From IMG/VR virus record IMGVR_UViG_3300020576_007358: DNA of 64,000 bases. One strand, written 5' to 3'. This document shows positions 19,700 through 52,596 of this stretch, piece after piece. Source of the DNA: a virus. The notes beneath the pieces were generated by a model. It searched no databases and was not told the origin of the DNA. It saw nothing but the letters and a program-made list of their open reading frames with translations. Both the position numbers and the translations under genes were made by a program. Positions within the stretch are counted from its first letter, which is position 1, and each line of letters opens with the position of its first letter.

Positions 19700-20590
19700 A
19701 TGGCGATAAATCTAGAAGCAATTCGTAAGCGCATGGCAGAACTTAACGGGCAGAAGAAGACGTCTTCTGTTCAACTTTGGAAGCCAACGCCGGGCGAGTA
19801 TAAAATTCGTGCAGTTCCTTGGAAGAACTCGACAGATGACCTACCTTTCCTCGAGAGGTGGTTCTACTACATCGGAAATGCACAAGGAATCCTTTCGCCG
19901 AAGCAGTTCGGTAAGCCGGATCCGATCGATGACCTCATCAGGAAGCTGTATTCTTCTGGGAAACCAGAAGATCGTGCGATGGCAAAGCAGCTTCATCCGA
20001 AGATGAGAGCGTACGTTGCTGTCGTTGTCAGGGGTCAGGAAGACAAAGGCGTCCAGGTTTGGAGCATTGGCAAGGGAATCTACAATCGCTTGCTTGGATT
20101 TTTCTCTGACGAAGAGGTGGGAGATTTTCTTGATCCCCTCGTTGGTTTTGACCTGAAGGTGACTATCACTCAGACGCCCGGAAAGCAGTACCCAGATACG
20201 ACCGTTGATGCTGCTCGCAGGCCGTCGAAGTTGATGGAAGATCCTGCACAGATCGAGAAGTTGCTGGCGTCAACGCCAAACCTAGATGACATGTATCGTC
20301 AGAAATCGAAGGAAGAGATCGAGAAGGTCTTGAACGATTGGTTGAACAGCGACGTCGCTGCGTCAGAAGACGGCACCGAGAAGGGTGCTCCTGCTAATGA
20401 TGCGCTCGATGCACTTGTAAATGAAGTTGCAACTGCGGCGAAGGCACAACCTGCTTCTGCGCCGGCAGAAGAACCAAAGAAGCAGAACAAGAAAAAGGCA
20501 GCATCGTCTGACGATGATGATGATGCACCAAAGAAGAAGCAAACGCTTGACGATGCATTCAACGAGCTGATGGAGACATTACGTGGCTAA
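19700..20590 (+). CDS. ssDNA-binding protein, T4 gp32-like.
   Basis: MAELNGQKK N-terminus and an acidic C-terminal tail (SSDDDDDAP...DDAFNEL) typical of gp32. ATG 19700 lies inside ORF 19658..20590. Confidence 0.55.
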   Translation: MAINLEAIRKRMAELNGQKKTSSVQLWKPTPGEYKIRAVPWKNSTDDLPFLERWFYYIGNAQGILSPKQFGKPDPIDDLIRKLYSSGKPEDRAMAKQLHPKMRAYVAVVVRGQEDKGVQVWSIGKGIYNRLLGFFSDEEVGDFLDPLVGFDLKVTITQTPGKQYPDTTVDAARRPSKLMEDPAQIEKLLASTPNLDDMYRQKSKEEIEKVLNDWLNSDVAASEDGTEKGAPANDALDALVNEVATAAKAQPASAPAEEPKKQNKKKAASSDDDDDAPKKKQTLDDAFNELMETLRG

Positions 20591-21815
20591 ACCTGCTAAG
20601 GTTGTTGCGGGTGAAGAACCTGCAAAGAAGAAAGCTGCAAACAGTGACGTTGACGATCTTACGACTGAGATCATCAAGTCCATCAACAAAGAATTCGGTC
20701 AACGAGTAGCGTACAACCTGTCAGTAGACGAAGCGCCTACTAACGTGAAGCGCTGGTTGGACACTGGCTCTATTCAACTGAACTATGCTATCAGAAATGC
20801 TGCTGGAGGTGGTTATCCTGAAGGTCGAGTCATCGAGATTTCTGGACCGCCATCGATAGGAAAATCACACCTAGCGTACCACGCTGCTGCTATCGTCCAG
20901 GGAATGGGTGGACTAGTAGTTTACATCGATACTGAGAATGCAACGCCAGTTGAGAAGCTTAAGAACGTTGGCATCAACGTTGCAAAGAGGTTCGTGTACT
21001 GCGATGCACATTGCACTGAAGAAGTATTTTCGATCATCGAATCAACTATCTTGAAGGCAAAGCAAGTCATGGACAAGAATGTTCCAATTCTTGTCATATG
21101 GGACTCAGTAGCGGCTACGTCACCAAAGGCCGAGCTAGATGGTGATTACGATCAGAACACTGTTGGTTTGCAAGCCAGGGTCATCAGCAAAGGCATGAGA
21201 AAGATCACTGGTGTGATCGGTCAGAATAACGTGACCCTGCTGTGCCTCAACCAACTTCGAACTGCTATCGGCGTGACGCATGGAGATCCAGACATCACTC
21301 CGGGCGGAAAATCGATTCCTTACCATGCAACGCTCAGAATCAGGCTTTCTTCCGGAACGCAAGTTAAGGATAACAGCGGCAATGTCATAGGCATCCATGT
21401 TATCATGACAACAAAGAAGAACAAAGTCGCACCTCCTTTCAGGAAGTACGAATTTGATGTCATCTTTGGCAGAGGAATTTCTGAGCACACTTACATCTTT
21501 GACGAACTTCGATCACACTGTGAAAAGAACGCCGTGACGATCGATCACAAGGACAGCAAAGGAAACGTTGAAAAGCTTCAGATCTCAATTGAAGGCGTCT
21601 CCGCCTGGAGAACGTTGAAGGTTTTCAGCACCGTGACTGGAGAAGTTCTCATCGAGAAGAAGTTCCAAAAGAACAATTTTGATGAGATAATGGCAGATCC
21701 AGTGTATAAGCCATTCATTGACAAAGCTATAGAAGACGCGTACATCATCCATGGTGGTGATCCAGATTCGTCTGGTGAATCACCTTCGGAAGAAGAGGTC
21801 CTCGATGAAAGTTGA
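20583..21815 (+). CDS. UvsX/RecA-family recombinase.
   Basis: Walker A GPPSIGKSHLAYH and RecA-like core. Confidence 0.65.
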   Translation: MAKPAKVVAGEEPAKKKAANSDVDDLTTEIIKSINKEFGQRVAYNLSVDEAPTNVKRWLDTGSIQLNYAIRNAAGGGYPEGRVIEISGPPSIGKSHLAYHAAAIVQGMGGLVVYIDTENATPVEKLKNVGINVAKRFVYCDAHCTEEVFSIIESTILKAKQVMDKNVPILVIWDSVAATSPKAELDGDYDQNTVGLQARVISKGMRKITGVIGQNNVTLLCLNQLRTAIGVTHGDPDITPGGKSIPYHATLRIRLSSGTQVKDNSGNVIGIHVIMTTKKNKVAPPFRKYEFDVIFGRGISEHTYIFDELRSHCEKNAVTIDHKDSKGNVEKLQISIEGVSAWRTLKVFSTVTGEVLIEKKFQKNNFDEIMADPVYKPFIDKAIEDAYIIHGGDPDSSGESPSEEEVLDES

Positions 21816-22326
21816 AGTTCTCTACGATGGCCCAGCCGCCCCAGAGTACAAGACGCTCGGAGCGGCTGGGTGTGATCTGTACGCTGACGAACACCAGATC
21901 GTCCTCGCTGGAAAGACGACGATCATCTCTACGGGACTTCGGCTAGCGATCCCAGAAGGATACGAAGGTCAAGTCAGGTCAAGATCAGGTCTTGCAACGA
22001 AAGGCGTGTTCGTTCTGAACTCTCCTGGTTGCATTGATTGTTTTTCGGGTGATTCGAAGATTAGTACTCTTAATGGAAAAATGAGCATACATGATCTTCG
22101 AATCAATGATCATATTCATTCATTCAATGAATCAACGCATGAAATAGAAAGTGATATTGTCACTGCCATTGTTGATGTGGGCGTAAGAGATGTTATCATT
22201 TTTCGCCTAGATGATAATACTACAATGTCTTTGACACCTGGAACGCTTGTATATACTAGCGCCGGCTTGAAGAGAGCTGATCAATTGACGTCATCTGATG
22301 AAATACTGGTTGACCATGATAGTTAG
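21805..22326 (+). CDS. dut: dUTPase N-terminal piece (motifs 1-3, ...VLNSPGCID) fused to an intein N-half (starts CFSGDSKIS at 22039) and ending in a stop.
   Basis: dUTPase motifs AGCDLY, RSG and NSPG.ID. Intein block A at C+1. ATG 21805 overlaps the RecA stop. Confidence 0.6.
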   Translation: MKVEVLYDGPAAPEYKTLGAAGCDLYADEHQIVLAGKTTIISTGLRLAIPEGYEGQVRSRSGLATKGVFVLNSPGCIDCFSGDSKISTLNGKMSIHDLRINDHIHSFNESTHEIESDIVTAIVDVGVRDVIIFRLDDNTTMSLTPGTLVYTSAGLKRADQLTSSDEILVDHDS

Positions 22327-22331
22327 TTATC

Positions 22332-23267
22332 ATGGTCAAATGTTTGATATGCAACGTTGAAAAACCCTATTCTATCGTTGAACATCTACGTTGTAAGCAC
22401 AAATTGTCAGTTGAAGCTTATCGTAAACAATTTGCCAACGCAGAAGTGAAATCTGCGTTGGCAATTGAAGCCATTTCTAAGCAACATAAGCTTGTTTGGC
22501 AAGATGAATCATACAAGCAAAAGATGCGTGCGTCTCGACAACGCACGCATCGTACAGATGAATTTCGTAAAAAACAATCTGATATCATTAAAAGTACATA
22601 CGCCCATGGGCATAGAACTTGGAATGATGGTCTGACAAAAGATTCGGATGAAAGACTGTCTTTGATTGGAAAAAAGAATTCAGAACATTTGACAGGCAGA
22701 ACAAAAGATACACATGATTATCTTAAAGGAAAAAGTGTTTTCATGAAGAAATTTCATGAGGATAATCCCGGTGTCTTTGTTCATAATAGAATTAATTGGT
22801 CAGAAGAACGAATAAAAGAATGGAAGGAAAAAATAAGTTCATCAGTTTGTGAAGCTTACCATGATGGCAGATGTGGCAGTTCATATCGATATATCAAAGG
22901 TTGGTTCGAAACGAAAGATTCTAAAAGAGAACATTATGATTCATCATGGGAACTTTCTTTGATGGAATTCTTGGAATCATTGAATGTTACGTGGACAAAA
23001 GCACATCGAATTACGATTGATTATCAATTTAATGGTAATAGAAGATACATTCCTGATTTTTTGATATCTTGGCGTGGTAAAAATTTGCTGCTTGAATTGA
23101 AGGGTTATGTTTCATCACAGATTGAACTTGATGAAAAAACTCAAGCAGCTAAAATTTGGTCAGAGAAACAAAACATGTGTTTTTCACTGTGTCATAGCGT
23201 AAACGAAGCAAAAGATGTCATTTGTAAATTTATGACGGAGGCAAATGAAACTAGCAAAAATTGTTAA
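22332..23267 (+). CDS. Free-standing homing endonuclease (zinc finger, [10 protein letters not shown] repeats, Vsr-like core) lying between the two dUTPase/intein pieces.
   Basis: ORF track. Same family as the other Vsr-like HEs. Confidence 0.55.
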
Positions 23268-23700
23268 TATTGAGCGTTCTACTGATCGTTGTTATGATTT
23301 GACCGTTGAAAACAATCATAATTTTTTCTGTAATGATGTTCTGATTCATAACTGTGATTACAGAGGCGTTGTGAAAGTCATATTGCACAACGTAGGGTCA
23401 TCGACATTTACTGTCAACAAAGGAGATAGGATAGCCCAGCTTGTAATTACGCCGATTATTCGAGCGTCATTCTCGCACTCTCGTGAGCTGCCAGAAACCG
23501 CTCGTGGAGCCGGTGGGTTTGGTTCAACTGGTACGTTAACTGATCTGTACTTGGGTCTTTGCGTTGATTACAGTTCAACATCTCTACATAAGGTGTTAAA
23601 TGGACGAAAAATCAACGCAAAGACCCATTTTGATTGTGGATTCTCTCAATCTCTTCGTGCGTTCATACGTTGCGTTTCCTGCAATGAACGTCAATGGTGA
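23245..23700 (+). CDS. dut: Intein C-half (36 aa, ...[13 protein letters not shown]) fused to the dUTPase C-terminal piece (CDYRGVV...[10 protein letters not shown]).
   Basis: Intein blocks F/G end in HN followed by Cys+1. dUTPase motifs 3 (tail), 4 and 5 follow. Start overlaps the HE stop. Confidence 0.6.
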
Positions 23701-24583
23701 AGCCACTGGAGGGTGCGTTGGATTCTTGAAAACGCTTCGCAAGCTTGTCAATGAGTATTCACCATCAGCTGTATACCTTGCATGGGAAGGTGGTGGATCG
23801 CAGAGAAGAAGAGCTCTGTTCTCAGAATACAAGATGAATCGACGACCAGAGAAGTTGAATCGATTCTATGAAGATGATTTGCCTGACTCTGAAGAGAATC
23901 GCCAACACCAGTTGATAGTGCTGCTGGGTTTGATGAAGTTCATCCCAGCGTGTCAACTTTACGTCTCTGATTGTGAAGGCGATGATCTTGTAGCTTACCT
24001 TGCGCGGCAAAAGTTTAAGAACGTTGACAAGATCATCGCTTCATCTGACAAAGATATGTACCAGCTCCTTGATGAGCGGACGAAGATTTACAGTTTTCAC
24101 AAGAAGATCATAATCACTGGTGATGACATCTTGAATGAGTACAAGATCAAGCCGGGAAACTTTGGTCTAGCGAAAGCGCTGTGCGGTGATCCGTCTGACA
24201 ACATCCCTGGATTGAAGGGATTTGGGTTCAAGACAGCATCTCGCGTTCTTCCATTCTTGCAGCTTCAAGATGACATTCTTGTCAGCGATGTGATCGACTA
24301 CTGCAATTCACACTATGACGAGTCAAAGTTGTACCAACGTGTTGTCGAGAATCAGGATCTTTTGAAGAGAAATTGGCGCCTTGTTCATCTAGATGGCAGC
24401 ATGCTGTCCGCTGCTCAGGCTTCCAAAGTAGATCAATTGATCAGTACATACGTCCCACGTAGTGATAGGATCAGCTTTACTCGAGGGCTTATGAAGGAAG
24501 GCATCAATGATTTTGATGTTGCTGATTTCTTCATGACCTTCAACTGCATCGAGAACGTGGAAAATAGGACTAAAGAAAAATGA
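23600..24583 (+). CDS. RNase H / 5'-3' exonuclease (FEN family).
   Basis: [17 protein letters not shown]-terminus and acidic clusters typical of T4 RNase H and Pol I 5'-nuclease. Confidence 0.6.
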
Positions 24584-25368
24584 ACGATGACATCAAGCCG
24601 ACAACGCAAGCTTCATTCGCACAGTATGGAAAGTCCTTCCAAGAAAAGCTGTGCCAAGCGCTGCTCGTTGACAAGCAGTTTGCTGAGCAGATGCTGGAGG
24701 TCTTTAACGTAACGTACCTAGAGCCAAAATACTTGGTGTTTCTTGCTGAACGTTATTTTTCGTACGCTCAGAAGTACAAGGTGTTTCCAACGATGCAGTT
24801 GCTCATCACGATCATCAGAGACGAGCTAAAGATTGGAACTGACGTTGTCATCAGAGATCAGATAGTAGATTACTTGCAACGCATGCGCTCTAATCCTGAC
24901 GTTGGAGATCTTCAGTACGTCAAGGAAAAGGCGCTAGATTTCTGCAGGAAGCAAGCGTTGCGCAGCGCTCTTGAAGAAGCGGTTGATCAGATACAGGCAG
25001 AGAAGTATGAATCGATCGTTGAAGGCATCAAGAAAGCAGTGATGGTCGGAACTGCTCCGCAGTTGGGTCATGACTTCTTTGCCGATTACGAGAGTCGCTT
25101 CACCAAGCTGTCGAGGAATGCAATTGCTACAGGTCTTCCAGAGCTAGATAAGAAAGACATCTTGAACGGTGGGTTGGGATCAGGTGAGCTAGGTTGCGTT
25201 GTTGGTGCGACTGGAACAGGAAAGTGTGTACATCGTGATACTTACATTCAGGTAAAATATACTGGAGTGAGAATTGATGGAAAACTATACAAGCCTTGGG
25301 ATCGAATTGCAACAAGGCGTGGAATCATCTTTGCTAGAGACGTCGTCGAATCAGATGAACTTGAGTGA
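24580..25368 (+). CDS. DnaB/gp41-like replicative helicase N-terminal piece, ending in P-loop GATGTGK, followed by an intein N-half (CVHRDTYIQ..., 47 aa) and a stop.
   Basis: Walker A is interrupted exactly at the GK|S position by Cys+1, the classic DnaB P-loop intein site. Confidence 0.6.
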   Translation: MNDDIKPTTQASFAQYGKSFQEKLCQALLVDKQFAEQMLEVFNVTYLEPKYLVFLAERYFSYAQKYKVFPTMQLLITIIRDELKIGTDVVIRDQIVDYLQRMRSNPDVGDLQYVKEKALDFCRKQALRSALEEAVDQIQAEKYESIVEGIKKAVMVGTAPQLGHDFFADYESRFTKLSRNAIATGLPELDKKDILNGGLGSGELGCVVGATGTGKCVHRDTYIQVKYTGVRIDGKLYKPWDRIATRRGIIFARDVVESDELE

Positions 25369-26458
25369 TAAATTCAAGTGTCAATATTGTTGTCAGCAAT
25401 ACAACAATCAATCTGGGTTGATCACGCATATTCGACGCAAGCATTCAACAACATTCACAGATTACAAGTTGAAATTTTCTCATCTTTACAAAGTTGAAAA
25501 AAGAGAAAAAAAACTTAGTCTAAATGAACTAGCTAGACGTAAACGTGATGAAAAAGCTATTGATGATGGACTTCAAGTTTTGAAGTGTGAAATTTGCAAT
25601 TATGAATCTTACTACAGTTTGATATCGCACATCGTAAGAAAACACGGTGTGGCTATGAATGAATATCGATCAAATTTCCCTTCAGCAGTTGTACAGCAAG
25701 TTACATCAGATGTCAGAGAAAAAAATAGAAAGAATGCAACGTTGCATCTTTCAGATCCTATCAAGAAAGCGAATTTTCTAAAACGAAGATCTTTTCCTTC
25801 TGAGATGAAACACTGGATCAATAAGGGATTTTCATCAGACGAAGCAAAGAAAAAAGTTGCTGAATTTCAACAAGCGATTGCGCTTAAAGGTAATAATGAA
25901 AAAACGAAGGCAAAACAGTCAATTAGAAATTCTGGTCAAAATAACCCAATGTCATTGACATCAATTTCGAAACGTCTTAACGTTTCGAAGGATGACGCAA
26001 GCAAATTGACACCGTGTTATGGAAGATCAGGCATCAAACATCCGATGTTTGGTAAAAAACACAGTATTGAAGCTTTGAACAAAATTGGTCAACACATTAA
26101 TCACACCGGACGTTCGAAAATCGAACACGAAATGTCTGATCTGATCATTTCATTGTATGGTGGTCTAAAGAACGTAGGAGTAAATGGTTGGTGCTGTGAT
26201 TACGTTAATCACGATCGTCAGATTATAGTTGAATTTTTTGGTGATTATTGGCATCACAATCCGGAAAAATATGATAGAAATTTTGTCAACAACTTTACTA
26301 AACGTTCATCTGAAGAAGTTTGGTTGCGTGATGCACGCAAATTGAATGAACTTAGAGAGAGCGGCTTTAACGTTGTTGTGATATGGGAATCTGATTGGCG
26401 AAACAAAAAAGAAGACAGTTTGAACAGGATAAAAGATGCTTTCAATAGAACATTGTGA
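25355..26458 (+). CDS. Free-standing homing endonuclease (C2H2 zinc fingers, Vsr-like core EFFGDYWH...VVIWESDW) between the helicase pieces.
   Basis: ORF 25274..26458. ATG 25355 (MNLSDKFKCQYC) overlaps the intein-N stop. Confidence 0.55.
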   Translation: MNLSDKFKCQYCCQQYNNQSGLITHIRRKHSTTFTDYKLKFSHLYKVEKREKKLSLNELARRKRDEKAIDDGLQVLKCEICNYESYYSLISHIVRKHGVAMNEYRSNFPSAVVQQVTSDVREKNRKNATLHLSDPIKKANFLKRRSFPSEMKHWINKGFSSDEAKKKVAEFQQAIALKGNNEKTKAKQSIRNSGQNNPMSLTSISKRLNVSKDDASKLTPCYGRSGIKHPMFGKKHSIEALNKIGQHINHTGRSKIEHEMSDLIISLYGGLKNVGVNGWCCDYVNHDRQIIVEFFGDYWHHNPEKYDRNFVNNFTKRSSEEVWLRDARKLNELRESGFNVVVIWESDWRNKKEDSLNRIKDAFNRTL

Positions 26459-27677
26459 AGTTGTTGAAGTTGTTAAAGTTGGTGATCTGTTTGCTAGCAT
26501 TGGATTTAATGATGATTCAGTTGCTGATGATTCTGGTGATTCATTTATTCCGAATGAATGGTCAATAGAAGTCAGATCACTTGACACTTTCTATCCTGTA
26601 GATGGTTTTCGTTGGACAAAACCAGAGCAGCAGGTGAAATTGACATATGGCAAAGAATCTTCTTTGCAGTGTTCACCAGAACACATTGTTTTGAAGTATT
26701 CTTCTACAGAAACTCAATGGACAAAAGTTAGTGATCTATCGCCTGGTGATGACATTGTCACTGTTAATGGCATATGCATGATTGATTCGATTGATAATCT
26801 AGAGGAACTTGATCGTCTTTGCGACCTTCAAGTATCAATTGCACATTCTTACTATGCTGACGGTGTGTTGTCACATAATTCTCACTTTCTTACGTTCTTG
26901 GGTGCAATGGCGCTGAGGAACAACGTTGATGTTCTTCACTACACGTTTGAGCTATCAGAGACTCAAGTTGGTATCAGGTATGATTCTAACTTGTGTGACA
27001 TTGATTCGAATGCTGTCATTGACAGCAAGGATCGTATTCTTACTAAGTACGCAGAGCAAAAGCTGGGACGCTTGATCATCAAGTACTTTCCGACGAACAC
27101 AGCTAGCATCTACACGCTTCGAAGTCACATCGAGCGCCTCGGAACGAAGGGTTTCAGGCCAGGATTGATTATCATCGACTATGCTGACATCATGAGATCA
27201 ACTCGTCAGTTCGATTCTTTGAGACACGAGCTTAAGCTCGTTTACGAAGAACTAAGAGGAATGGCTGGTGAGCTAGGAATCCCAGTGTGGACAGCGAGCC
27301 AGAGCAACAAAGAGGGAGCGACAAGCGAGATCATCGACATGGGAAACATGTCTGAAGCTTACGGCAAAGCGATGATCGCTGACGTGATCGTCAGCATCTC
27401 TAGGCGTGCTCACGAGAAGTCAACGGGTCAAGGTCGATTGTACGTTGCAAAGAATCGCGCCGGGCGCGATGGTCTTGTTTATCCGTTGCACATTGACACC
27501 TCAAAGAGCAACTTTGAGATCTTGGGTGGACCGGGTTCTTTGGACGTCGCCATGAAGGAGAACGAATCTGACATCAAGAAAGTTCTTCGTTCAAAGTGGA
27601 ACGAGATGAGAAATGATCCAATCATCGGCGAAAATCTAAAAAGAGGAAGCGATTCTAGCGATGACACGGGTTCTTGA
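26436..27677 (+). CDS. Intein C-part (about 148 aa with blocks B, F, G; ...VLSHN) fused to the helicase C-terminal piece (SHFLTFLGAMAL...).
   Basis: HN|S junction at 26880. Helicase motifs follow downstream (IIDYADIM, SQSNKEG, RAGRDG). Confidence 0.6.
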   Translation: MLSIEHCEVVEVVKVGDLFASIGFNDDSVADDSGDSFIPNEWSIEVRSLDTFYPVDGFRWTKPEQQVKLTYGKESSLQCSPEHIVLKYSSTETQWTKVSDLSPGDDIVTVNGICMIDSIDNLEELDRLCDLQVSIAHSYYADGVLSHNSHFLTFLGAMALRNNVDVLHYTFELSETQVGIRYDSNLCDIDSNAVIDSKDRILTKYAEQKLGRLIIKYFPTNTASIYTLRSHIERLGTKGFRPGLIIIDYADIMRSTRQFDSLRHELKLVYEELRGMAGELGIPVWTASQSNKEGATSEIIDMGNMSEAYGKAMIADVIVSISRRAHEKSTGQGRLYVAKNRAGRDGLVYPLHIDTSKSNFEILGGPGSLDVAMKENESDIKKVLRSKWNEMRNDPIIGENLKRGSDSSDDTGS

Positions 27678-27737: not shown

Positions 27738-30700
27738 ATGAAGACATTTACGTACCAAGAAGCTCGTGATGCATCGGTTGACTATTTTTCTGGTGACACT
27801 CTAGCTGCTGATGTTTTTGTGTCCAAATATGCGTTGCGTGATTCAAATGATCAAGTTCTAGAGAGCACACCAGAAGCCATGCATCGTCGCTTGGCGAAGG
27901 AGTTCGCTAGGATAGAGTTGAACTACAAAAACTCTATTTCGTTCGAAGAGATCATGGAGTATTTCAGCTCTTGGAAGATCGTGCCTCAAGGATCGCCGAT
28001 GTCTGCGATTGGAAACACGAAGCAGATCCAGTCTCTGTCAAATTGCTTTGTCATTGAATCGCCGTACGATTCTTACGGCGGAATCATGAAGACCGACCAA
28101 GAGCAAGCTCAGATCATGAAGCGCCGCGGCGGTGTTGGATTCGACATCTCGTCAATCAGACCAAAGGGATTGGTCACAACTAACGCTGCTCGTACGACCG
28201 ATGGCATCGGTGTTTTCATGGAGCGCTTCAGCAACACTTGCAGGGAAGTTGCGCAAGGCGGTCGCCGTGGTGCTTTGATGATGACAATCTCTGTTCATCA
28301 CCCAGAGATTCGCACGTTCATCAACATCAAGAAGAACGTTGAAAAAGTTACAGGCGCAAACATCTCGATCAGGTTGACTGATGAGTTCATGCGAGCAGTG
28401 AAGGCTGGCGAGAAGTTCCAGCTAAGGTTCCCAGTTGAAGCAAATGCACAGCATACGATCAAAGAAGATGTCGACGCTGGTGAACTGTGGAGTGAGATCA
28501 TTGAGGCTGCTCATGCGTCAGCTGAACCCGGCTTGCTATTTTGGGACAACGTTGTTAATAATGGTCCAGCAGATGCATATCCCGGCTTCAAGTCTATCTC
28601 TACGAATCCCTGCTCTGAGATCGCTCTTTGCGCTTACGATTCGTGCAGATTGCTGCTTCTCAACGTTTCAAAGTTCGTAGAGAATCCTTTCACTGACAGA
28701 GCAAATTTCAACATCAAAGAGTTCAAGAGAGCTGCGTACGTTGCTCAACGCTTGATGGACGACTTGGTTGATCTTGAGCTCGAAGCCGTCGATAGGATCA
28801 TCGACAAGATCAACTCAGATCCAGAACCAGACGACGTAAAGAAGAACGAGCTAGATCTTTGGTTGAAGATCAGGGAAAAAGGTGCCTCGGGCCGTCGCAC
28901 TGGTTTGGGAATCACTGGTCTTGGTGATGCCATTGCGTACGTTGGGTTGAAGTACGGATCAAGGGAATCTATCGATTTTACGGAAGATCTGTATAGAATG
29001 TTGGCTCTTTCTGCGTACCGTTCGTCAGTTGACATGGCGGCAGAACGTGGAGCATTTCCTGCGTTTTCTCACAACGTTGAAGCTGGTCATCCGTTCATTG
29101 AAAAGATCTTGGCACATGATGATGAGCTCAAGGCTGCATACAAGGTTCACGGTCGTCGTAACATTGCCTTGACAACAACTGCGCCCGCTGGATCAGTTTC
29201 AATCCTGACTCAAACAACGTCTGGTTGCGAACCTGTTTTTGCAGTTAGCTACAAGCGCAAGAAGAAGATCAATTCGAACGACGTCACGACCACTGCCAAC
29301 TTTGTTGATGATCTTGGAGATCGTTGGCAAGAGTATACTGTCTACCATCATGGATTGAAGATGTGGATGGATGTGACTGGAAAGACAGAGGCTGATATTG
29401 ATGAATCGCCTTACAAGGGTTCTTCTAGCTCTGAGATCGATTGGCATGCTCGTGTTGACCTTCAAGCCGCAGCCCAAAGATGGATCTGCCATGCAATTTC
29501 CAGCACTGTCAACTTGCCATCAGATACGTCAGTTGAGACAGTTAAAAACATCTACATGCGAGGTTGGGAATCTGGGTGCAAGGGAATCACAGTGTATCGT
29601 GATGGTTGCAGAGCAGGCGTTCTATCGACAGAAGAGAAAAAGCCAAGTATTCAAGGAGCGTCGACCGATGGCTTGAAAGCCCTTCTTGACATTGTAACTA
29701 AGAACGCTGGTAGCATTCCATCAGCTGATTTGTACAAAAAATTGATTGAAGAAGAGCTCACGAGGAGAGAGCCGACTCAACCAGAAAAGGTCGTCGAAGT
29801 TCATGCACCAAAGCGTCCAAAGGAGCTAGAGTGTGATATCCATCGAGTCAACATCAAAGGTGAACAGTATCTTGTCTTCGTCGGATTGCTGAACGGTGTT
29901 CCATACGAAGTCTTTGCTGGTCTGTCAGAACACGTTGAAGTGCCAAAGAAGGTTAAGAAGGGAATCTTGATCAAGAATGGCAAGAAAGACGGTGTTGCAA
30001 CGTACAACCTGAAGATTCCTGTAGGAGATGATGATTTTGTGACGTTCAAAGACGTTGTTAACTTGTTTGACAACCCAACTTACGGTTCGTTCACCAGAAC
30101 GTTGTCTCTAACGTTGAGGCATGGCATCCCGCTTCAGTACATCGTAGAGCAGCTTCGCAAAGACAAGCACAGCGACATGATGTCATTTTCAACTGTCATT
30201 GCTAGGGTCTTGAGCAAGGGTTACATCGTCGATGGAACGAAAGCAACTCAAGAAAAGCAGTGCTCAAGTTGCGGTTCTGATCAGCTAGCGTACATGGAAG
30301 GTTGCCAGACGTGCATGAACTGTGGAAGTAGCAAGTGTTCCTTATACTTAACTCCAAGACGAAAGGTTGATGACGTGAAAATCAAGATCACACCGCAGAT
30401 GCTGAGGCAGCTTGTTAACGAAGAAGTTCTGAACGTGAAGCGCAAGGGAACTTTGAAGGAAGCCTTTGGACCATATGATGCCACTGGCGAGTATGATGAT
30501 AAGGAATACGGCATGCAACCGTGGAACTTTGAAGAGTCACACAGGGAACTGTTTGCTCAGGCGCTTGAACCAGTCATCAATGAGTTCATGGAGTCTTTGG
30601 CCGAGATCGTTGAAAGAGCTTCGCCACCAGATGCTAACATGTCTGCGCAAGATATTGGTAGCGATGAATACAACAGCTTCGGTGAAGACCTCAAAGAAGA

Positions 30701-31118
30701 TCTTTTGAAGGTCATTGCTCAACACATGAAGAATGCGTCTGAAAATTTTGGTCTTTTAGAGGTTAACGTCATGAAGATAAAGCTAAGTGATCTGCGAAAG
30801 ATCATCAGAGAAGTTGCAGTTTCACCTGCTGTCTTCAAGAGCAGCCAACCTGCAAAAGATCCGATGGAGAAGAAGAACATTGTCAAAGCGGTCTCTGATT
30901 TGAAGACAGCGTTCGAATCAGCGCTTCTAAGCAACCTTGTTCTTGCGAACCCAGAGAAGTACGATGAATCCTCGAGAGAATTTGATGATCAGATGTACGA
31001 ATCTCTTAAGACAACAGCGGCCTCAGCATCTGAACAAGTAGCATCAAAGATCAATGATGCAGTTCAGACTGCATGGGTTGCTGCACACAAAAACTCTAAG
31101 GTAAATCACTTAAAGTGA
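27738..31118 (+). CDS. Ribonucleotide reductase, probably class II monomeric NrdJ-like, with a C-terminal zinc ribbon and an additional C-terminal extension of about 250 aa.
   Basis: NPCSEIAL active-site motif. Zinc ribbon CSSCGSDQ...CQTCMNCG. The extension carries two copies of the MKIKLSDLRKII-like peptide. Confidence 0.65.
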   Translation: MKTFTYQEARDASVDYFSGDTLAADVFVSKYALRDSNDQVLESTPEAMHRRLAKEFARIELNYKNSISFEEIMEYFSSWKIVPQGSPMSAIGNTKQIQSLSNCFVIESPYDSYGGIMKTDQEQAQIMKRRGGVGFDISSIRPKGLVTTNAARTTDGIGVFMERFSNTCREVAQGGRRGALMMTISVHHPEIRTFINIKKNVEKVTGANISIRLTDEFMRAVKAGEKFQLRFPVEANAQHTIKEDVDAGELWSEIIEAAHASAEPGLLFWDNVVNNGPADAYPGFKSISTNPCSEIALCAYDSCRLLLLNVSKFVENPFTDRANFNIKEFKRAAYVAQRLMDDLVDLELEAVDRIIDKINSDPEPDDVKKNELDLWLKIREKGASGRRTGLGITGLGDAIAYVGLKYGSRESIDFTEDLYRMLALSAYRSSVDMAAERGAFPAFSHNVEAGHPFIEKILAHDDELKAAYKVHGRRNIALTTTAPAGSVSILTQTTSGCEPVFAVSYKRKKKINSNDVTTTANFVDDLGDRWQEYTVYHHGLKMWMDVTGKTEADIDESPYKGSSSSEIDWHARVDLQAAAQRWICHAISSTVNLPSDTSVETVKNIYMRGWESGCKGITVYRDGCRAGVLSTEEKKPSIQGASTDGLKALLDIVTKNAGSIPSADLYKKLIEEELTRREPTQPEKVVEVHAPKRPKELECDIHRVNIKGEQYLVFVGLLNGVPYEVFAGLSEHVEVPKKVKKGILIKNGKKDGVATYNLKIPVGDDDFVTFKDVVNLFDNPTYGSFTRTLSLTLRHGIPLQYIVEQLRKDKHSDMMSFSTVIARVLSKGYIVDGTKATQEKQCSSCGSDQLAYMEGCQTCMNCGSSKCSLYLTPRRKVDDVKIKITPQMLRQLVNEEVLNVKRKGTLKEAFGPYDATGEYDDKEYGMQPWNFEESHRELFAQALEPVINEFMESLAEIVERASPPDANMSAQDIGSDEYNSFGEDLKEDLLKVIAQHMKNASENFGLLEVNVMKIKLSDLRKIIREVAVSPAVFKSSQPAKDPMEKKNIVKAVSDLKTAFESALLSNLVLANPEKYDESSREFDDQMYESLKTTAASASEQVASKINDAVQTAWVAAHKNSKVNHLK

Positions 31119-32994: not shown

Positions 32995-33282
32995 ATGGAT
33001 AAAACATACAAGCTATCAGATTCAGTTATCGCACGCATTGCACAAATTCTTCAAGAGGGAATCTTGATGGGCGTTGACATCGTTGATCTTCTTCGAATGG
33101 TTGAAGTTGAAACGTTTGGCGAAGAGCTCGTCTTGACGAAGGGTTACGTTGAACGAGTGAAGGCATCTCATGATGATGCACTTGCAAAGGTTGAACAGCT
33201 TAAGTCTGAGAGAAATAAGAGCAGAGTAGTTATCGGTGACTTATGTCTGTGTTTGAAGGTGCCGTTGCAATTCTTCTGCTAA
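32995..33282 (+). CDS. Hypothetical protein; N-terminus weakly resembles the shared motif (YKLSDSVIARIAQILQEG).
   Basis: ORF track. Confidence 0.3.
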   Translation: MDKTYKLSDSVIARIAQILQEGILMGVDIVDLLRMVEVETFGEELVLTKGYVERVKASHDDALAKVEQLKSERNKSRVVIGDLCLCLKVPLQFFC

Positions 33283-33349
33283 CTCTTTGCTTTTTTATCG
33301 GTGAGCTAAAAAGGAAACATGAAAAAGAACGTTGATCGTTTAGGAAAAA

Positions 33350-34525
33350 ATGGCGCGTATACTACGAACATATCAATTTAATTGCAAGCAATGCGGTAAA
33401 AAGTGTGAAAAGTCTAACCGTAGTGGAAAACAACCAAATTTTTGCGATACTTCATGTAGTCAAATTTGGTCATATGCACATGGTCGAATTAAAACTGCTT
33501 CACGTGAATTCAAAATTCACCAACATGGCGTAGAAAGAGTTCATGAACTCGAAAAATTGCAGTATTACACATTTACATGCGAATACTGCAATGCTAACGT
33601 TACAAAGCGTAAAAGATCTCCTTTGCCAAGATTTTGCAATCGAAAGTGTTCAACGCAATTTACAGCAGTTCATGGTCGTAAACCAACGATTAACGCTGTA
33701 CATCGTAAAGCTATGAGCGAAAGAGCTACGGCTAAGTTGCTAGAGCAACCAGAGAATTTGTATTCTTGGAATACAATTAAAGGATGGTACAAAGGTAACT
33801 TCTTTAGAAGTTCGTATGAATATCACTTTCTTAAGTGGCTCGAAACAAAACAAGTCAATTTGCAGACAGATTTGAAAAAAGTACCTACTATTCAATATGA
33901 GTTTGACGGTCGTGGTCACACATATATCCCAGATTTTTACGTTGAAAAATGGAGAACGTTGTTTGAAGTTAAAAGTTCTTATGCGTGTAAAAATGATCCA
34001 AAAGTTCTTGCAAAAGCTGTTGCAGCAGAAGATTTCTGTAAAGACAAGCAATTGACTTATCAAATCATAACAGAAGATACATTGCCAGAATTGAAATCAG
34101 ACATAACTTTGATTAAGCATGATAAGTGTGTATTTTTGTTGTCAACATCTAAATCGACTGATGATCGACTTGAACACATGTTCGTTGAACAAATGAAGTT
34201 CATGAAACTCCTGCGTCAGGAAAGAAATTTCCCAGAATTTCCAGTTGATGTTTCTTCAAAACCTGGTCAGAAACTTCTTAAAGAAGTTGCACATGAATGC
34301 ATGCATGAATTGTTTGAATCTGTGCATTTGCTTCGTAATTCAAAATCACACAGAATATCTGATGTGCAAGATTTTGATAAAGAGGCCTTTTTGGAAGAGT
34401 TGTCAGATACGTTGCATTATCTGATGGAATTGTTTATCTTGAGTGGTATTACTAGCAAAGATTTGTACAAAGCATATATGAAAAAAGGAACAATCAATTT
34501 TGCTAGAATATTGAGCAATTATTGA
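33350..34525 (+). CDS. Homing endonuclease-like protein: N-terminal CxxC zinc fingers, PD-(D/E)xK core (YIPDFYV...FEVK), and a C-terminal extension whose last residues duplicate the N-terminus of the downstream Hsp20 gene.
   Basis: ORF track. Repeated AYMKKG..N..RI motif at 34480 and 34555. Confidence 0.5.
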   Translation: MARILRTYQFNCKQCGKKCEKSNRSGKQPNFCDTSCSQIWSYAHGRIKTASREFKIHQHGVERVHELEKLQYYTFTCEYCNANVTKRKRSPLPRFCNRKCSTQFTAVHGRKPTINAVHRKAMSERATAKLLEQPENLYSWNTIKGWYKGNFFRSSYEYHFLKWLETKQVNLQTDLKKVPTIQYEFDGRGHTYIPDFYVEKWRTLFEVKSSYACKNDPKVLAKAVAAEDFCKDKQLTYQIITEDTLPELKSDITLIKHDKCVFLLSTSKSTDDRLEHMFVEQMKFMKLLRQERNFPEFPVDVSSKPGQKLLKEVAHECMHELFESVHLLRNSKSHRISDVQDFDKEAFLEELSDTLHYLMELFILSGITSKDLYKAYMKKGTINFARILSNY

Positions 34526-35121
34526 TTGCATCAGGTGTAACGCTTGATGAGATGCACGAAGCGTACATGAAAAAAGGTGAAGTCAACCGAAAAAGGATCG
34601 AATCAGGGTACTTAGCCCCTGTACATTGCTTAAGGAGTGTTTTATCATGTTTTCACGAGATTGGTTCTCGTGGAAAGGAAAACACTGCTATGCTAACTCG
34701 TTACTATGATACGATGAGAAATCCAACCTACAAGTTCGGTGACTTTAACGCAATCTTTGATGACATGCTTTCAATTGATCCATTTAAGTCAGAATCTTCT
34801 ATCTGGACGAAGAAGATCATGAACAATCTACCAGAACCAACGTTTTGGCATGAGAAGACTGAAGAAGGTTCTGCTCTTCACGTTGAACTACCGGGATACA
34901 AGAAAGAAGACGTATCGATAACGCTGCAAGACAAGACTCTTGTTGTCAAGGCTGAACGTAAGATGCCCGGCGGTGCGAAGACTGTCTCGTGGAGCTGGCG
35001 CATTCAGGATACGTACGAGTCCAATCCAACGTTTGCGAAGCTAGCTGATGGCATCCTTACGATAGGATTGAAGAGTAAACAACCACCACCTGAAGAAGCA
35101 CTCAGCATAAAGATCGAGTAA
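34522..35121 (+). CDS. Small heat-shock protein, Hsp20/alpha-crystallin family.
   Basis: ACD-like core HVELPGYKKEDVSITLQDKTLVVKAERK. Confidence 0.55.
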   Translation: MIASGVTLDEMHEAYMKKGEVNRKRIESGYLAPVHCLRSVLSCFHEIGSRGKENTAMLTRYYDTMRNPTYKFGDFNAIFDDMLSIDPFKSESSIWTKKIMNNLPEPTFWHEKTEEGSALHVELPGYKKEDVSITLQDKTLVVKAERKMPGGAKTVSWSWRIQDTYESNPTFAKLADGILTIGLKSKQPPPEEALSIKIE

Positions 35122-35334: not shown

Positions 35335-36012
35335 ATGGGAAATAGATCTGATCAAGTTAAAAAGTTGTGGCAAACACCAGAATTTCGTGAAAAAATTATC
35401 GCAGCATCTAAAGACGGAAAAGCGTCGATTGAATCAAAACTTAAGCGTTCTAAAAGCTCAAGTAAATTGTGGTCTGATCCGGATTATTGTGAAAAACAAC
35501 GAATAAAACACAATGAACGAAAGAAAAGATTTGAACAAAAGCGAGTGACTATAACGTGTCTGACGTGTGGAAAAGAATGTAAGGTTAATGCAACAGTTGC
35601 AAAAACTAAGAAGTACTGTTCTCGTCGTTGCGTTATTAACAACCCAGCTTTTAACGTAAATCGAAATTTTTCCAACAGCACGTGTGTTGCTTGTCAGACA
35701 GAATTCAAACCAACTGGTGTTAAACAGTTGTGCTGCACTACATGCGTTCCAAATAATTCAGCAAAATCACGTTGGAATTCGTATAAATTGACTCAACCAA
35801 TGTACGAAATGTTGCTAAGTCAACAGGGAAATTGTTGCGCACTGTGCGAAATTTCATTCAGTAATTTGAATTCAAAAGAAATTCATGTAGATCATGATCA
35901 TACTACAAATAAAATTCGTGGCATATTGTGTATGCGGTGCAATCGTAGCTTGGGTGTGGTAGAGTATATTCCACACTTTTTGGAAAAAGTAGCAACTTAT
36001 GTCAACATTTGA
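35335..36012 (+). CDS. HNH endonuclease with NUMOD-like repeats (homing endonuclease candidate).
   Basis: CALC...HVDHDH...RGILCMRCN HNH core. Repeats KLWQTPEFREKI and KLWSDPDYCEKQ. Confidence 0.55.
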   Translation: MGNRSDQVKKLWQTPEFREKIIAASKDGKASIESKLKRSKSSSKLWSDPDYCEKQRIKHNERKKRFEQKRVTITCLTCGKECKVNATVAKTKKYCSRRCVINNPAFNVNRNFSNSTCVACQTEFKPTGVKQLCCTTCVPNNSAKSRWNSYKLTQPMYEMLLSQQGNCCALCEISFSNLNSKEIHVDHDHTTNKIRGILCMRCNRSLGVVEYIPHFLEKVATYVNI

Positions 36013-50732: not shown

Positions 50733-51620
50733 TCACCCTTTGACGGCCTCGGATACCCGAACGAACATTTCGATTTTTGTCGTGAGAATGGTCTTGATGC
50801 TCACGCAATTACTGAGCACGGTAACATGAACAGTTACGCTCATGCTCAACTCGCAGTTGAAGATTGGAATAAAGCAAACCCAAAACTTCCTTTCAAGTAC
50901 ATTCCGGGTTGTGAAATGTACTTTCACCCAAGCTTGAAGCAGTGGGAAGTTGACAAGCTTCGTGCTGAAGAAGCCCTGGTCGATAAGAAAGCAGCAGCGA
51001 AGCTCCTGAAGGAGCAGGAAAAGCTGCAGACAAAGATCATTGCTGTCGTCGATGAAGCGGATGAAACCGAAGACATCGAGATGACCAATGCTCTGACAGT
51101 TGAAAATGAAGACGAGTCAAAGTCAACGAAGCACTTCAATCCCGTCAACCGTCGTCATCACCTTGTTGTTCTGCCAAAGAACCAGCAGGGCTTGCTGTCC
51201 ATTTTCTCTGCGTGCTCGAAAGCGTACATGCAGGGTTTTTACAGATTCCCTCGCATCGACTTGGAGATGCTGAAGGAAGCAGGAAAAGATCGTAACATCG
51301 TTGTCACTTCTGCATGCATTCATCCAGATTCAATTGTGATCACCAATTGTGGTTCAATGAAGATTGTTAATCTAGTTGAACATGTAAAAAATGGCACTGA
51401 AATTTCGGTGTTGTCATATGATCATGACACAAACCAACTTGTTTTTAAGAAAGTTACTTGGGCTGATAAAACAAGAGAACAAGCAAAAATTGTTCGAATT
51501 AAGCTTAAAAATGGTGCAACATTGCGGGTAACGCCTGATCACAAAGTCTATACTAAACGTGGTTGGGTAGAAGCACAAGAACTTCTGAAAACAGATCATA
51601 TACTGTCAATCCACCAATAG
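50733..51620 (+). CDS. dnaE: DnaE (Pol III alpha) PHP-domain N-terminal piece followed by an intein N-half (CIHPDSIVIT...TPDHKVYT, starts 51315) and a stop. The upstream in-frame start region at 50619/50670..50720 is separated from it by TAG (50721) and TAA (50730).
   Basis: SPFDGLGYPNEHF...AITEHGN...GCEMY PHP motifs. Intein blocks A and B. ORF track 50826..51620. Confidence 0.55.
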   Translation, partial: SPFDGLGYPNEHFDFCRENGLDAHAITEHGNMNSYAHAQLAVEDWNKANPKLPFKYIPGCEMYFHPSLKQWEVDKLRAEEALVDKKAAAKLLKEQEKLQTKIIAVVDEADETEDIEMTNALTVENEDESKSTKHFNPVNRRHHLVVLPKNQQGLLSIFSACSKAYMQGFYRFPRIDLEMLKEAGKDRNIVVTSACIHPDSIVITNCGSMKIVNLVEHVKNGTEISVLSYDHDTNQLVFKKVTWADKTREQAKIVRIKLKNGATLRVTPDHKVYTKRGWVEAQELLKTDHILSIHQ

Positions 51621-51636
51621 TTATTGGTGGACAACT

Positions 51637-52596
51637 ATGAGAAAATTTGATTCTAAAAAGAAAGCACTAGCTCGTCAAGAATTTCTTGACTCTCTAACTC
51701 ATGTAGGTCTGACGACGGTTGAATTGAAGCGCCTGGCATCAGACCTACATTATAGTTTGTCTATGATTTATGATCTAATTGTGAGAGATCACAATGATAT
51801 TGTTACACGTTTTCGTTTTTCAAAACGATCAATTGTAAATCTGTTTCATAAACTAGGCATAGTTCATAACAATAAACTTTACTTGAGATTGCCTCAAGAA
51901 GTTAAGTTGCAGTTCAAATATCCTAAGGGAACTTCTCTTGAAGAGATAAAAAAGATCTGTTCACAACAATCTTCAAAAGGTGCTAAGACTACTCATCGTA
52001 TTAGAAAGGCATGGGATGCATACACGCCCAAAAATAATACTGAATATTATCTCAATAAAGGATATTCTCTTGACGAAGCAAATGTTAAATCGTCAGCCTT
52101 TCGAAAAAGTAAGTCTCCATTCTCAAGATCATTTTCGAACTATCAACAGCTTGCTGCTGATGACGTTCTAGAACTAATTCGTGAACTCTCAAGAAATAGA
52201 GGGCTTAAAGGGCTTGTTAGTATGCGTGCTCGCAATTCGAAACTCGAATTGCGAGTTGTATCTGAATTGCTAAACAAAGATATTCATTGTGAAACACAGA
52301 AAATTTTGGGCAAATTTGCATATGATGTTTTTGTACCAAGATTCAATCTGATCATTGAAGTAAATGGAACGTACTGGCACGCAGATCCACGCGTTTATAA
52401 CGCTGATGATCTAATTCAATTTCCGTACGGGCAAGTTAAGGCAAGTGAAAAATGGTCAAAAGATGAGATAAAGTTGGCTTATGCCAGATCAATTGGCTAT
52501 AATGTTTGTGTGTTGTGGGAAGCGGACTTGAAAAAAGAAGGTTACCTTGACGAATTCATCAAATCAATCAATGACAGCTATGCAGATGACAACTGA
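51637..52596 (+). CDS. Free-standing homing endonuclease (Vsr-like core IIEVNGTYWH...VCVLWEADL) between the dnaE pieces.
   Basis: ORF track. Confidence 0.55.
   Translation: MRKFDSKKKALARQEFLDSLTHVGLTTVELKRLASDLHYSLSMIYDLIVRDHNDIVTRFRFSKRSIVNLFHKLGIVHNNKLYLRLPQEVKLQFKYPKGTSLEEIKKICSQQSSKGAKTTHRIRKAWDAYTPKNNTEYYLNKGYSLDEANVKSSAFRKSKSPFSRSFSNYQQLAADDVLELIRELSRNRGLKGLVSMRARNSKLELRVVSELLNKDIHCETQKILGKFAYDVFVPRFNLIIEVNGTYWHADPRVYNADDLIQFPYGQVKASEKWSKDEIKLAYARSIGYNVCVLWEADLKKEGYLDEFIKSINDSYADDN

Follow-up and report, generated by a model that had tools for sequence, protein, structure and literature searches.

A fractured dUTPase gene, interrupted within its third conserved motif by a split class-1 intein with a free-standing homing endonuclease gene between the intein halves, is very probably what is encoded at 21805-23700 of IMG/VR virus record IMGVR_UViG_3300020576_007358, a 64,000-nucleotide stretch (the window) from an uncultivated jumbo phage. 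A preliminary description of the sequence had proposed this fractured-gene architecture, and the proposal is supported by an empty allele in a near-identical relative, by retention of the split layout across lineages and by purifying selection on all of its parts. The element combines a layout known from other phage genes with a host gene, a nuclease type and an intein active site that set it apart.

Results

Locus anatomy and the empty allele

Both the list of open reading frames (ORFs) and the sequence itself show three co-directional ORFs on the plus strand, at 21751/21805..22326 (ORF1), 22332..23267 (the endonuclease) and 23245..23700 (ORF3) (Table 1). The longest reading of ORF1 starts at 21751, and the start used in relatives is MKVEVLYDG, at 21805. 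Pfam assigns residues 12-87 of ORF1 to dUTPase, followed by Hint/Hint_2 from residue 78, and residues 4-36 of ORF3 to Intein_splicing, followed by dUTPase at 34-96; PHROG 135 (dUTPase) matches both ORFs. When the flanking exteins are joined, the five motifs of the trimeric dUTPases (Pfam PF00692) are present and in order.

Much of the preliminary description stands at this level. The junctions, ...NSPGCID/CFSGDSKIS... and ...VLIHN/CDYRG, place the intein in motif 3 exactly where it had been put, the N-terminal half (IntN) has 95 residues and ends in a stop at 22326, the C-terminal half (IntC) has 36 residues and starts at 23245, as in the ORF list, and a complete endonuclease ORF with its own start and stop lies between them. 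The halves had also been assigned to different frames, which proved wrong: 21805 and 23245 are both 1 mod 3, and the endonuclease ORF alone occupies another frame. Overlaps had been described on both sides of the endonuclease ORF. The one at its 3' end exists, with 23 nt shared with ORF3, but at its start a 5-nt spacer separates it from the stop of ORF1.

The boundaries of the insertion are defined by a second IMG/VR contig, L001, which has the same uvsX-dut-FEN neighbourhood at 94-99% nucleotide identity and an uninterrupted dUTPase (...NSPGCIDSDYRG...) whose intein-less site reads ...AACTCTCCTGGCTGCATTGACTCAGATTACAGAGGCGTT.... The joined exteins of the window correspond to this uninterrupted enzyme: the N-extein is 97% identical to it, and the C-extein protein is the same save for Cys in place of Ser at position +1, so that motif 3 after joining reads GCIDCDYRG against GCIDSDYRG in the empty allele. 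At the nucleotide level the empty site is GGC TGC ATT GAC / TCA GAT TAC and the occupied site GGT TGC ATT GAT [cassette] TGT GAT TAC. Of the 21 differences between the exteins of the window and L001, four are no more than 13 nt away from the junction, and one of these, the change from Ser to Cys, provides the +1 nucleophile. The cassette has a guanine-cytosine (GC) content of 0.349 against a window mean of 0.452 (standard deviation 0.036), the lowest of all windows of equal size, and the flanking exteins have 0.49-0.53. This compositional break coincides with the ends of the intein, which means that the endonuclease and the two intein halves arrived together.

An uninterrupted phage dUTPase elsewhere (L008, ~4181) also carries Cys at +1 of the insertion site (GTLDCDYRG), which could be the footprint of a precise intein loss or a pre-adapted site. 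At the other end of the gene, the dUTPase C-ORF has a 54-aa tail past motif 5 (GFGSTG), at 23533..23700, which overlaps the start of the FEN/5'-3' exonuclease gene (23600) by 101 nt. The tail is probably unselected read-through, because the C-ORF product has 130, 131, 151 or 201 aa in near-identical relatives; distant lineages end 1-2 residues past motif 5.

Table 1. Features of the fractured dUTPase locus in window coordinates
Feature	Position	Strand	Details	Basis
dUTPase N-extein	21805..22038	+	78 aa; AAGCDL (motif 1), RSRSG (motif 2), first half of motif 3 (...NSPGCID)	Pfam dUTPase 1.2e-9; PHROG 135 1.6e-21
Whole cassette (IntN, endonuclease, IntC)	22039..23352	+	1314 bp; missing in L001	blastn and direct comparison
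Intein N-half	22039..22326	+	95 aa plus TAG stop (22324-22326); Cys1 at 22039-22041	Hint/Hint_2 matches
Block B	22234-22245	+	T66-P-G-T69; Thr at the usual His position	Alignment to solved inteins
RNA hairpin (predicted)	22310..22339	+	13 bp; IntN stop codon in loop, endonuclease ATG (22332) in 3' arm	Free energy -16.8 kcal/mol, z -4.0
Free-standing endonuclease	22332..23267	+	311 aa	Pfam Tn7_TnsA-like_N (PF08722), alignment, AlphaFold2
Zinc finger, N-terminal	22341-22400	+	C4-x2-C7...H18-x4-H23	Alignment, nearly invariant
PD-(D/E)xK nuclease, C-terminal	about 22899-23201	+		E207 (22950), D242 (23055), E255 (23094), K257 (23100)
Shine-Dalgarno sequence of C-half ORF	23237..23241	+	GGAGG, 3 nt before ATG 23245, inside endonuclease 3' end	Read from sequence
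Intein C-half	23245..23352	+	36 aa; block F (D, NNHNFF), block G (HN)	Pfam Intein_splicing 2.5e-6
dUTPase C-extein	23353..23700	+	Cys+1 (23353-23355), CDYRG (rest of motif 3), GDRIAQL (motif 4), motif 5 to 23532	Pfam dUTPase 7.8e-17

The endonuclease

The preliminary description called the endonuclease Vsr-like, and this label has to be replaced. The EDxHD motif that defines the Vsr-like homing endonuclease family (PMC3239194) is absent, phmmer found no match to Vsr, and the protein carries instead an E..PD..ExK signature with an invariant Lys; the other two endonucleases of the window, in a helicase and a polymerase gene described below, do match Vsr by phmmer. In the alignment E207, P241-D242-F243 and E255-x-K257-G258 are invariant and make up a canonical PD-(D/E)xK site. 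The Pfam score against Tn7_TnsA-like_N lies just above the gathering cutoff, and the endonuclease profile weakly matches Bax1 over the SS.E..IPDF..E.kG core; a single-sequence phmmer search of the PDB returned nothing meaningful. AlphaFold2 models the zinc finger and the nuclease domain confidently (predicted local distance difference test, pLDDT, about 90), and the middle region is helical, with conserved WNxGLTK and LTGRTK motifs. Judged from these motifs and models, the protein is a predicted canonical PD-(D/E)xK nuclease (TnsA-N/Bax1-like) with the restriction-endonuclease fold that is also found in Vsr.

Close relatives of the enzyme are few. Full-length matches amount to only 16 clusters in 5.8 billion proteins, and an exhaustive profile search gave 29 close representatives at 50% identity, followed by a sharp drop to 830 distant proteins (E<=1e-10) that mostly share the nuclease domain only. 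One full-length paralogue, P0162, lies outside any fractured gene, as a simple free-standing gene that follows an intact IMPDH gene. Compared by hhalign with the helicase endonuclease, the dUTPase endonuclease shares only the N-terminal zinc finger (95%), and its nuclease domain gave no alignment with those of the helicase and polymerase endonucleases. Because the finger is shared while the nuclease domains do not align, the comparison indicates module shuffling, in which the same putative DNA-binding finger is carried by different nucleases. A group I intron around the endonuclease was also considered and is unsupported, because Rfam gave no family at the gathering threshold anywhere in the 64-kb window.

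Selection and a proposed homing cycle

Between the window and L050, a relative with the same layout, the ratio of nonsynonymous to synonymous substitution rates (dN/dS) is 0 in the exteins, 0.03 in IntC, 0.10 in IntN and 0.20 in the endonuclease: every part evolves under purifying selection. The cassette is 81-85% identical in nucleotide sequence (dS 0.56-0.77), and the flanks are 92-97% identical (dS 0.17-0.41); because the cassette is more diverged than its flanks, this hints at separate histories or at exchange.

Further IMG/VR loci supply other stages of what resembles a homing cycle: empty (L001), full (the window and many loci), broken (L081, in which the endonuclease is split into ORFs of 130 and 178 aa) and endonuclease-deleted (L074-79). 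In the last group the endonuclease is largely gone and the insert measures only 482 nt, in which IntN runs on into 7 out-of-frame codons and ~38 codons from the end of the endonuclease remain before IntC; both intein halves are intact and still split. With both halves kept, these loci argue for a split intein that must function in the absence of the nuclease, and they show that the split gene persists without it. Homing itself we infer from the presence/absence polymorphism with exact boundaries, the substitutions clustered at the junction and the GC discontinuity.

The broken and deleted derivatives can also be read in another way, namely that the layout is real, but that the endonuclease has ceased to act as a homing enzyme and the cassette is a fixed relic, kept since dUTPase needs the split intein. 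Extein, intein and endonuclease diverge roughly in parallel across distant lineages, which fits long vertical co-inheritance of this kind. We nevertheless consider a relic unlikely, given that the endonuclease is under constraint and has its catalytic E/D/E/K residues and zinc ligands intact, that an empty allele exists in a phage that is ~97% identical, with substitutions clustered at the junction, that the cassette has diverged more than its flanks, and that its boundaries coincide with a sharp change in GC content.

The split intein and its block B

The fused N- and C-halves align end to end with solved mini-inteins, with Spl DnaX as the best match (1.7e-9 as a single sequence and 2.7e-17 with a profile of 17 lineages) and Ssp DnaB, NrdJ-1 and gp41-1 next. 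The residues expected of a splicing intein are in place across the family: Cys1, the block A nucleophile, and T66 are invariant in the 17 lineages, D113 and H120 of block F and H130 and N131 of block G are at least 90% conserved, and Cys+1 is found in all 59 C-half clusters. Charge follows a familiar pattern too, with a net charge of -9 for IntN in the window (-8 to -14 across lineages) and +1 to +5 for the first 18 residues of IntC across lineages; complementarity of an acidic IntN and a basic IntC is typical of natural split inteins (Dassa 2009, PMC2677866).

Block B departs from the T-x-x-H of class 1 inteins. The position of the His is taken by Thr or Ser in 17 of 17 lineages: TPGT, as in the window, and TPNT align to the TGNH, TANH and TPDH of solved inteins, and the lineages other than that of the window have TPNT, TPNS, TLNS, TENT, TPET or TPTT, none with His. 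TPDH is retained in the split intein of the window's polymerase. The block B His is described as the most conserved single intein residue, one that many inteins cannot do without (PMC6333167), and the natural exceptions cited in that source form only a very small group, the orthologues of Tko CDC21-1, which still splice by a compensatory mechanism.

Loss of this His in all lineages, with T-x-x-T/S in place of T-x-x-H, could mean that the halves no longer splice, and that the dUTPase is either dead, with the host enzyme used in its stead, or assembled non-covalently from its fragments, as is known for the endonuclease-split phage enzyme Aeh1 NrdA (as outlined in PMC3045599). This seems to us quite improbable. 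A dead enzyme fits poorly with exteins at a dN/dS of 0 and with five intact dUTPase motifs, and an unspliced 131-aa HINT domain in motif 3 would occupy the active site. Mere association of fragments would require none of the conserved splicing residues, and yet Cys1, the block F Asp and His, the penultimate His, the terminal Asn and Cys+1 are invariant or nearly so across lineages that are 45-60% identical. The replacement of His is moreover one-to-one by Thr or Ser and never by a random residue, which suggests a functional substitute. Natural inteins that lack the block B His and splice are documented in the Tko CDC21-1 orthologues, as cited in PMC6333167.

Recurrence across lineages

The distribution of the element speaks to the reality of the split. 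The exact 311-aa endonuclease occurs on 14 independently assembled contigs from different samples, one of which, from JGI 3300014059, measures 313,755 bp and therefore belongs to a jumbo phage. The three-part layout recurs in about 20 divergent lineages on more than 50 metagenomic phage contigs, and is found at every homologue of the middle ORF with visible context (L050, L047, L053, L055, L062, L063, L064 and L066), at endonuclease identities to the window of 79% (L050), 52% (L047), 42% (L053) and 32% (L055). Frame combinations vary across these lineages, as (1,0,1), (1,1,2), (0,2,0) and (0,1,0), with the two intein halves in different frames in L053; spacers range from 5 to 64 nt, and the stop and start codons differ too.

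A search with IntC plus extein gave at least 59 clusters of proteins of ~97-130 aa, all starting at the Met of IntC, and found no long contiguous intein-bearing dUTPase among the 5.8 billion proteins. A scan of IMG/VR with an IntC/junction profile gave 52 loci, at which every intact intervening ORF matches the same endonuclease hidden Markov model, at 1e-62 to 1e-133; the endonuclease itself was met with no intein but that of dUTPase. Among deposited phages, megablast of 20000-26000 against GenBank phages had no match, and tblastn of IntC plus extein against 50,697 phage records returned extein-level matches only, so that the element occurs in no deposited phage. Since there was no megablast match and UvsX finds its best GenBank phage match at only ~39% identity, the phage is without a close deposited relative. 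The IntC/junction profile run against 185,579 bacterial and archaeal species genomes gave one partial match, to IntC residues 14-37 only, and with it no clue to the host; none of these genomes carries the element.

That sequencing or assembly frameshifts broke one continuous intein with a nested endonuclease domain is effectively refuted by these comparisons and can be set aside: in the window the halves share a frame and the insert of 1314 nt is a multiple of 3, so two compensating frameshifts could in principle mimic the split, but such a pair is excluded because the layout recurs with differing frame relationships, stop codons, spacers and ATGs in about 20 diverged lineages and unchanged in the 14 independent assemblies, the C-half proteins begin at the IntC Met with no contiguous dUTPase intein beside them, ORF3 has its own GGAGG, and the Vsr-like intein-associated endonucleases, which have the same fold, are free-standing and not nested in the reports consulted (PMC2677866).

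Expression signals and a proposed mechanism

The endonuclease ORF is without a Shine-Dalgarno sequence, and its ATG lies in the predicted hairpin listed in Table 1. Lineages with spacers of 5-25 nt keep the pairing of GACCAYGATA (the codons of ...DHD) with TATCATGGT, and in those with spacers of 33-58 nt there is another intergenic hairpin, which likewise reaches to the ATG. At the other end, the close contact between the endonuclease 3' end and the start of IntC, either abutting or overlapping, is conserved across lineages, at -2 to 29 nt. The hairpin had also been flagged as terminator-like, a role that we reject: its T-tract is poor, and termination there would cut off the dUTPase C-half. 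A promoter scan gave 11 hits against 8.0 +/- 2.3 in shuffled sequence, which is not above expectation.

We propose that ORF1 and ORF3 would be translated separately, ORF3 from its own GGAGG, and that the acidic IntN and the basic N-terminus of IntC would associate electrostatically into a HINT fold. Class-1 chemistry would follow, with an N-S shift at Cys1, transfer to Cys+1 and cyclisation of Asn131, in which the block F Asp and His and the terminal His-Asn would take part; the N-terminal scissile bond would have to be activated without a block B His, at a site that is Thr or Ser in the whole family. The product of splicing in trans would be an intact dUTPase of ~21 kDa with motif 3 as GCID-CDYRG, and the expected junction peptide is NSPGCIDCDYRG. 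Other split inteins of fractured genes, gp41-1, NrdJ-1 and IMPDH-1, have been shown to splice in trans. Output of the endonuclease would be low with its ATG buried in the hairpin, and ribosomes terminating on ORF1 may open the hairpin and thereby couple the two translations. In mixed infections the endonuclease would cut the intein-less allele at or near ...CCTGGCTGCATTGAC/TCAGATTACAGAGGC..., and recombinational repair would copy the 1314-bp cassette into the cut allele, which is to say that the cassette would home.

Other insertions in the window and in its relatives

The preliminary description counted the dUTPase gene as one of three fractured genes in the window, and the other two, encoding a DnaB-type helicase (24580..27677) and a PHP/DnaE-type polymerase (50826..56059), are indeed fractured. 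The helicase lies in three parts, 24580..25368, 25274..26458 and 26436..27677. Its intein enters at an unusual point, the Walker A motif (GATGTGK/CVHRD...). The N-half is short, at about 48 aa, and in the C-ORF about 149 aa of intein, with block B (CSPEH) among them, precede ...SHN/SHF; the endonuclease (25274..26458) is of the Vsr-like kind and has C2H2/BED-type zinc fingers together with a NUMOD3 motif. The polymerase is likewise in three parts, 50826..51620, 51637..52596 and 52547..56059, with a Vsr-like endonuclease at 51637..52596 and a canonical split intein (TPDH; IntC ...SLVHN/CIGG) that forms an internal contrast to the His-less intein of the dUTPase.

A second TnsA-like PD-(D/E)xK ORF, of 391 aa (33350..34525, with 32995..33282 and 34522..35121 beside it; Pfam 6e-10), lies in another low-GC island and aligns by hhalign with the nuclease domain of the dUTPase endonuclease (95%). 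At its C-terminus ~60 aa match Pfam dUTPase_2, a type that is all-alpha and MazG-like, and the ORF that follows opens with a diverged repeat of its end (SGITSKDLYKAYMKKGTINFARI against SGVTLDEMHEAYMKKGEVNRKRI). These matches suggest that a free-standing endonuclease gene, without an intein, entered a MazG/dUTPase_2-like gene and brought a replacement 3' end with it. The window has four low-GC islands (about 0.35-0.37 against the mean of 0.452), at 22000-23400, 25200-26500, 33100-34600 and 51200-52600, and these coincide exactly with the four endonuclease-bearing insertions. The 225-aa product of an ORF at 35335..36012 ends in an endonuclease VII domain (Pfam 1e-18), and the ORF may be one more free-standing nuclease gene.

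Members of the population differ in how many insertions of this kind they carry. In two loci with the identical dUTPase endonuclease (L058, 2293..4871; L060, 6906..9484) the upstream recA/uvsX gene is in two RecA_N ORFs with an ORF inserted between them, of 304 aa, or of 186 aa with an MTES_1575-like domain. Between dUTPase and FEN, L050 (4304..5278) and L061 (1870..2844) have an extra 324-aa ORF on the minus strand, which has no Pfam match and is absent from the window. The large subunit of ribonucleotide reductase (27738..31118) has 1126 aa in the window against 1008 aa in L058 and L061, a difference of 118 aa; Pfam found no Hint domain in it at E<=0.01. ARAGORN found no tRNA genes in the 64-kb window.

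Discussion

Several observations weigh against the dUTPase gene being a working fractured gene in the sense proposed here. The block B His is absent from the whole dUTPase intein family, and because of this efficient splicing is not guaranteed. The N-terminus of IntC in the window is only weakly basic (+1), and a single-sequence AlphaFold2 model of the fused intein reached a pLDDT of 49, too poor for inspection of the active site. Covariation in the hairpin amounts to 0 and 1 compensatory pairs, too few to prove an RNA structure; because it is so slight, the hairpin rests on its stability, position and recurrence, and translational coupling is put forward conditionally. Its conservation could also be explained by protein constraints in the short-spacer lineages, because both arms are partly coding there. 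What the sequence shows directly is the anatomy of the locus, the presence/absence polymorphism, the conservation and the selection; splicing, the activity of the endonuclease, its cleavage target and control by the hairpin are all things that we infer from it. We nonetheless judge a genuine fractured dUTPase with a split intein and a homing endonuclease to be the reading that best accounts for the locus.

The layout is known. Fractured genes described by Dassa et al. in 2009 include gp41-1, NrdJ-1, NrdA-2, IMPDH-1, DnaE, ligase and terminase, with hairpins in 15 of 16 endonuclease 5' regions and overlaps at the 3' ends (PMC2677866). As in those genes, the ORF of an enzyme is here in two parts on one strand, the N-part in frame with IntN and the C-part in frame with IntC, and a free-standing endonuclease gene, kept in all lineages, lies between the halves in a phage context, with a putative hairpin (of weak covariation) at its initiation codon and its 3' end overlapping the start of IntC by 23 bp, against 6-69 bp in the earlier set. 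The sizes of the halves, 95 and 36 aa, fall within the 88-105 and 33-54 aa reported for IntN and IntC, and each set has an endonuclease-less variant (gp41-7 there, L074-79 for dUTPase). The spacer, which is 5 nt in the window, differs from the 27-51 nt of the earlier set, a descriptive and not a functional feature. The dUTPase gene also differs in that dUTPase is absent from the eight host enzyme types listed, in that its endonuclease is neither GIY-YIG nor Vsr-like, and in that its block B is without the His of the Thr79/His82 pair that the earlier inteins keep. The view of the preliminary description that such genes are seen mainly in marine metagenomic contigs is dated, given that the cultured Pseudomonas jumbo phage MIJ3 has a split PolB intein (PMC6892783); this too is a fractured gene in a contiguous jumbo-phage genome, but it has PolB as its host gene, an HNH endonuclease and a canonical block B, TEDH. 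In the literature collection that we searched there was no report of a dUTPase intein.

The endonuclease can be set beside several known nucleases. Like the EDxHD or Vsr-like enzymes represented by I-Bth0305I (PDB 3R3P; PMC3239194), it is free-standing in phage and appears to join N-terminal DNA-binding modules to a C-terminal nuclease of the restriction-endonuclease fold, and its zinc-finger module is common to the Vsr-like endonuclease of the window's helicase; those enzymes, however, have E-D-x-H-D with His as the general base where this one has E..PD..ExK with an invariant Lys, and neither profile alignment nor phmmer links the nuclease domains. With the TnsA N-terminal, Bax1 and VRR-NUC nucleases it shares the PF08722 match and the Bax1 match over the core, but it is no transposase subunit or repair nuclease, and it combines a zinc finger with helical repeats inside a split intein. 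Intein-associated endonucleases were listed in a 2025 survey as LAGLIDADG, HNH, GIY-YIG, Vsr-like and a new endonuclease VII-like type, and the canonical PD-(D/E)xK type is not among them.

In homing at large the use of such a nuclease core has a parallel. I-Ssp6803I, whose gene lies in a group I intron, forms a small single-domain tetramer. This enzyme of a cyanobacterial tRNA intron, which is mentioned in PMC2677866, uses a canonical PD-(D/E)xK core for homing; it is likened here by description only, and the dUTPase enzyme differs from it as a 311-aa multi-module protein associated with an intein. For the intein, the nearest parallel is with the Tko CDC21-1 orthologues which, as cited in PMC6333167, lack the block B His and yet persist; their persistence implies that the N-terminal scissile bond is activated in some compensatory way. 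In the inteins cited there, which are contiguous and archaeal, a compensating residue has been reported and Leu occupies position -1, whereas the dUTPase intein is split, belongs to a phage, and has Thr or Ser at the His position and Asp at -1.

The dUTPase element is thus a known layout with a new host gene, a different type of nuclease and no block B His, and not a new principle. A broader proposal, that it represents an ancient, widespread and previously undescribed family of at least 59 clusters, in which a split-only intein activates its N-terminal junction without the block B His, with Thr or Ser in its place, and has co-evolved one-to-one with a dedicated, multi-module, canonical PD-(D/E)xK endonuclease, we advance tentatively, as a possibility that falls a little short of probable. 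If true, it would amount to a new lineage of intein-associated homing endonuclease together with a new His-independent natural split intein, and possibly an orthogonal ligation tool.

Split inteins from fractured genes, gp41-1, NrdJ-1 and IMPDH-1 among them, are some of the fastest protein-ligation tools. A large, diverse family of His-less natural split inteins of 95 and 36 aa would offer new orthogonal candidates for ligation, and would also serve as a natural experiment on how the N-S acyl shift is activated without the block B His. A canonical PD-(D/E)xK enzyme would extend the range of intein-associated nucleases. Finally, with one endonuclease family strictly tied to one intein insertion site and with empty, deleted and broken alleles side by side, the dUTPase locus provides an unusually complete homing-cycle set, which is relevant to the question of how inteins are invaded by free-standing endonucleases and split genes come about in this way.

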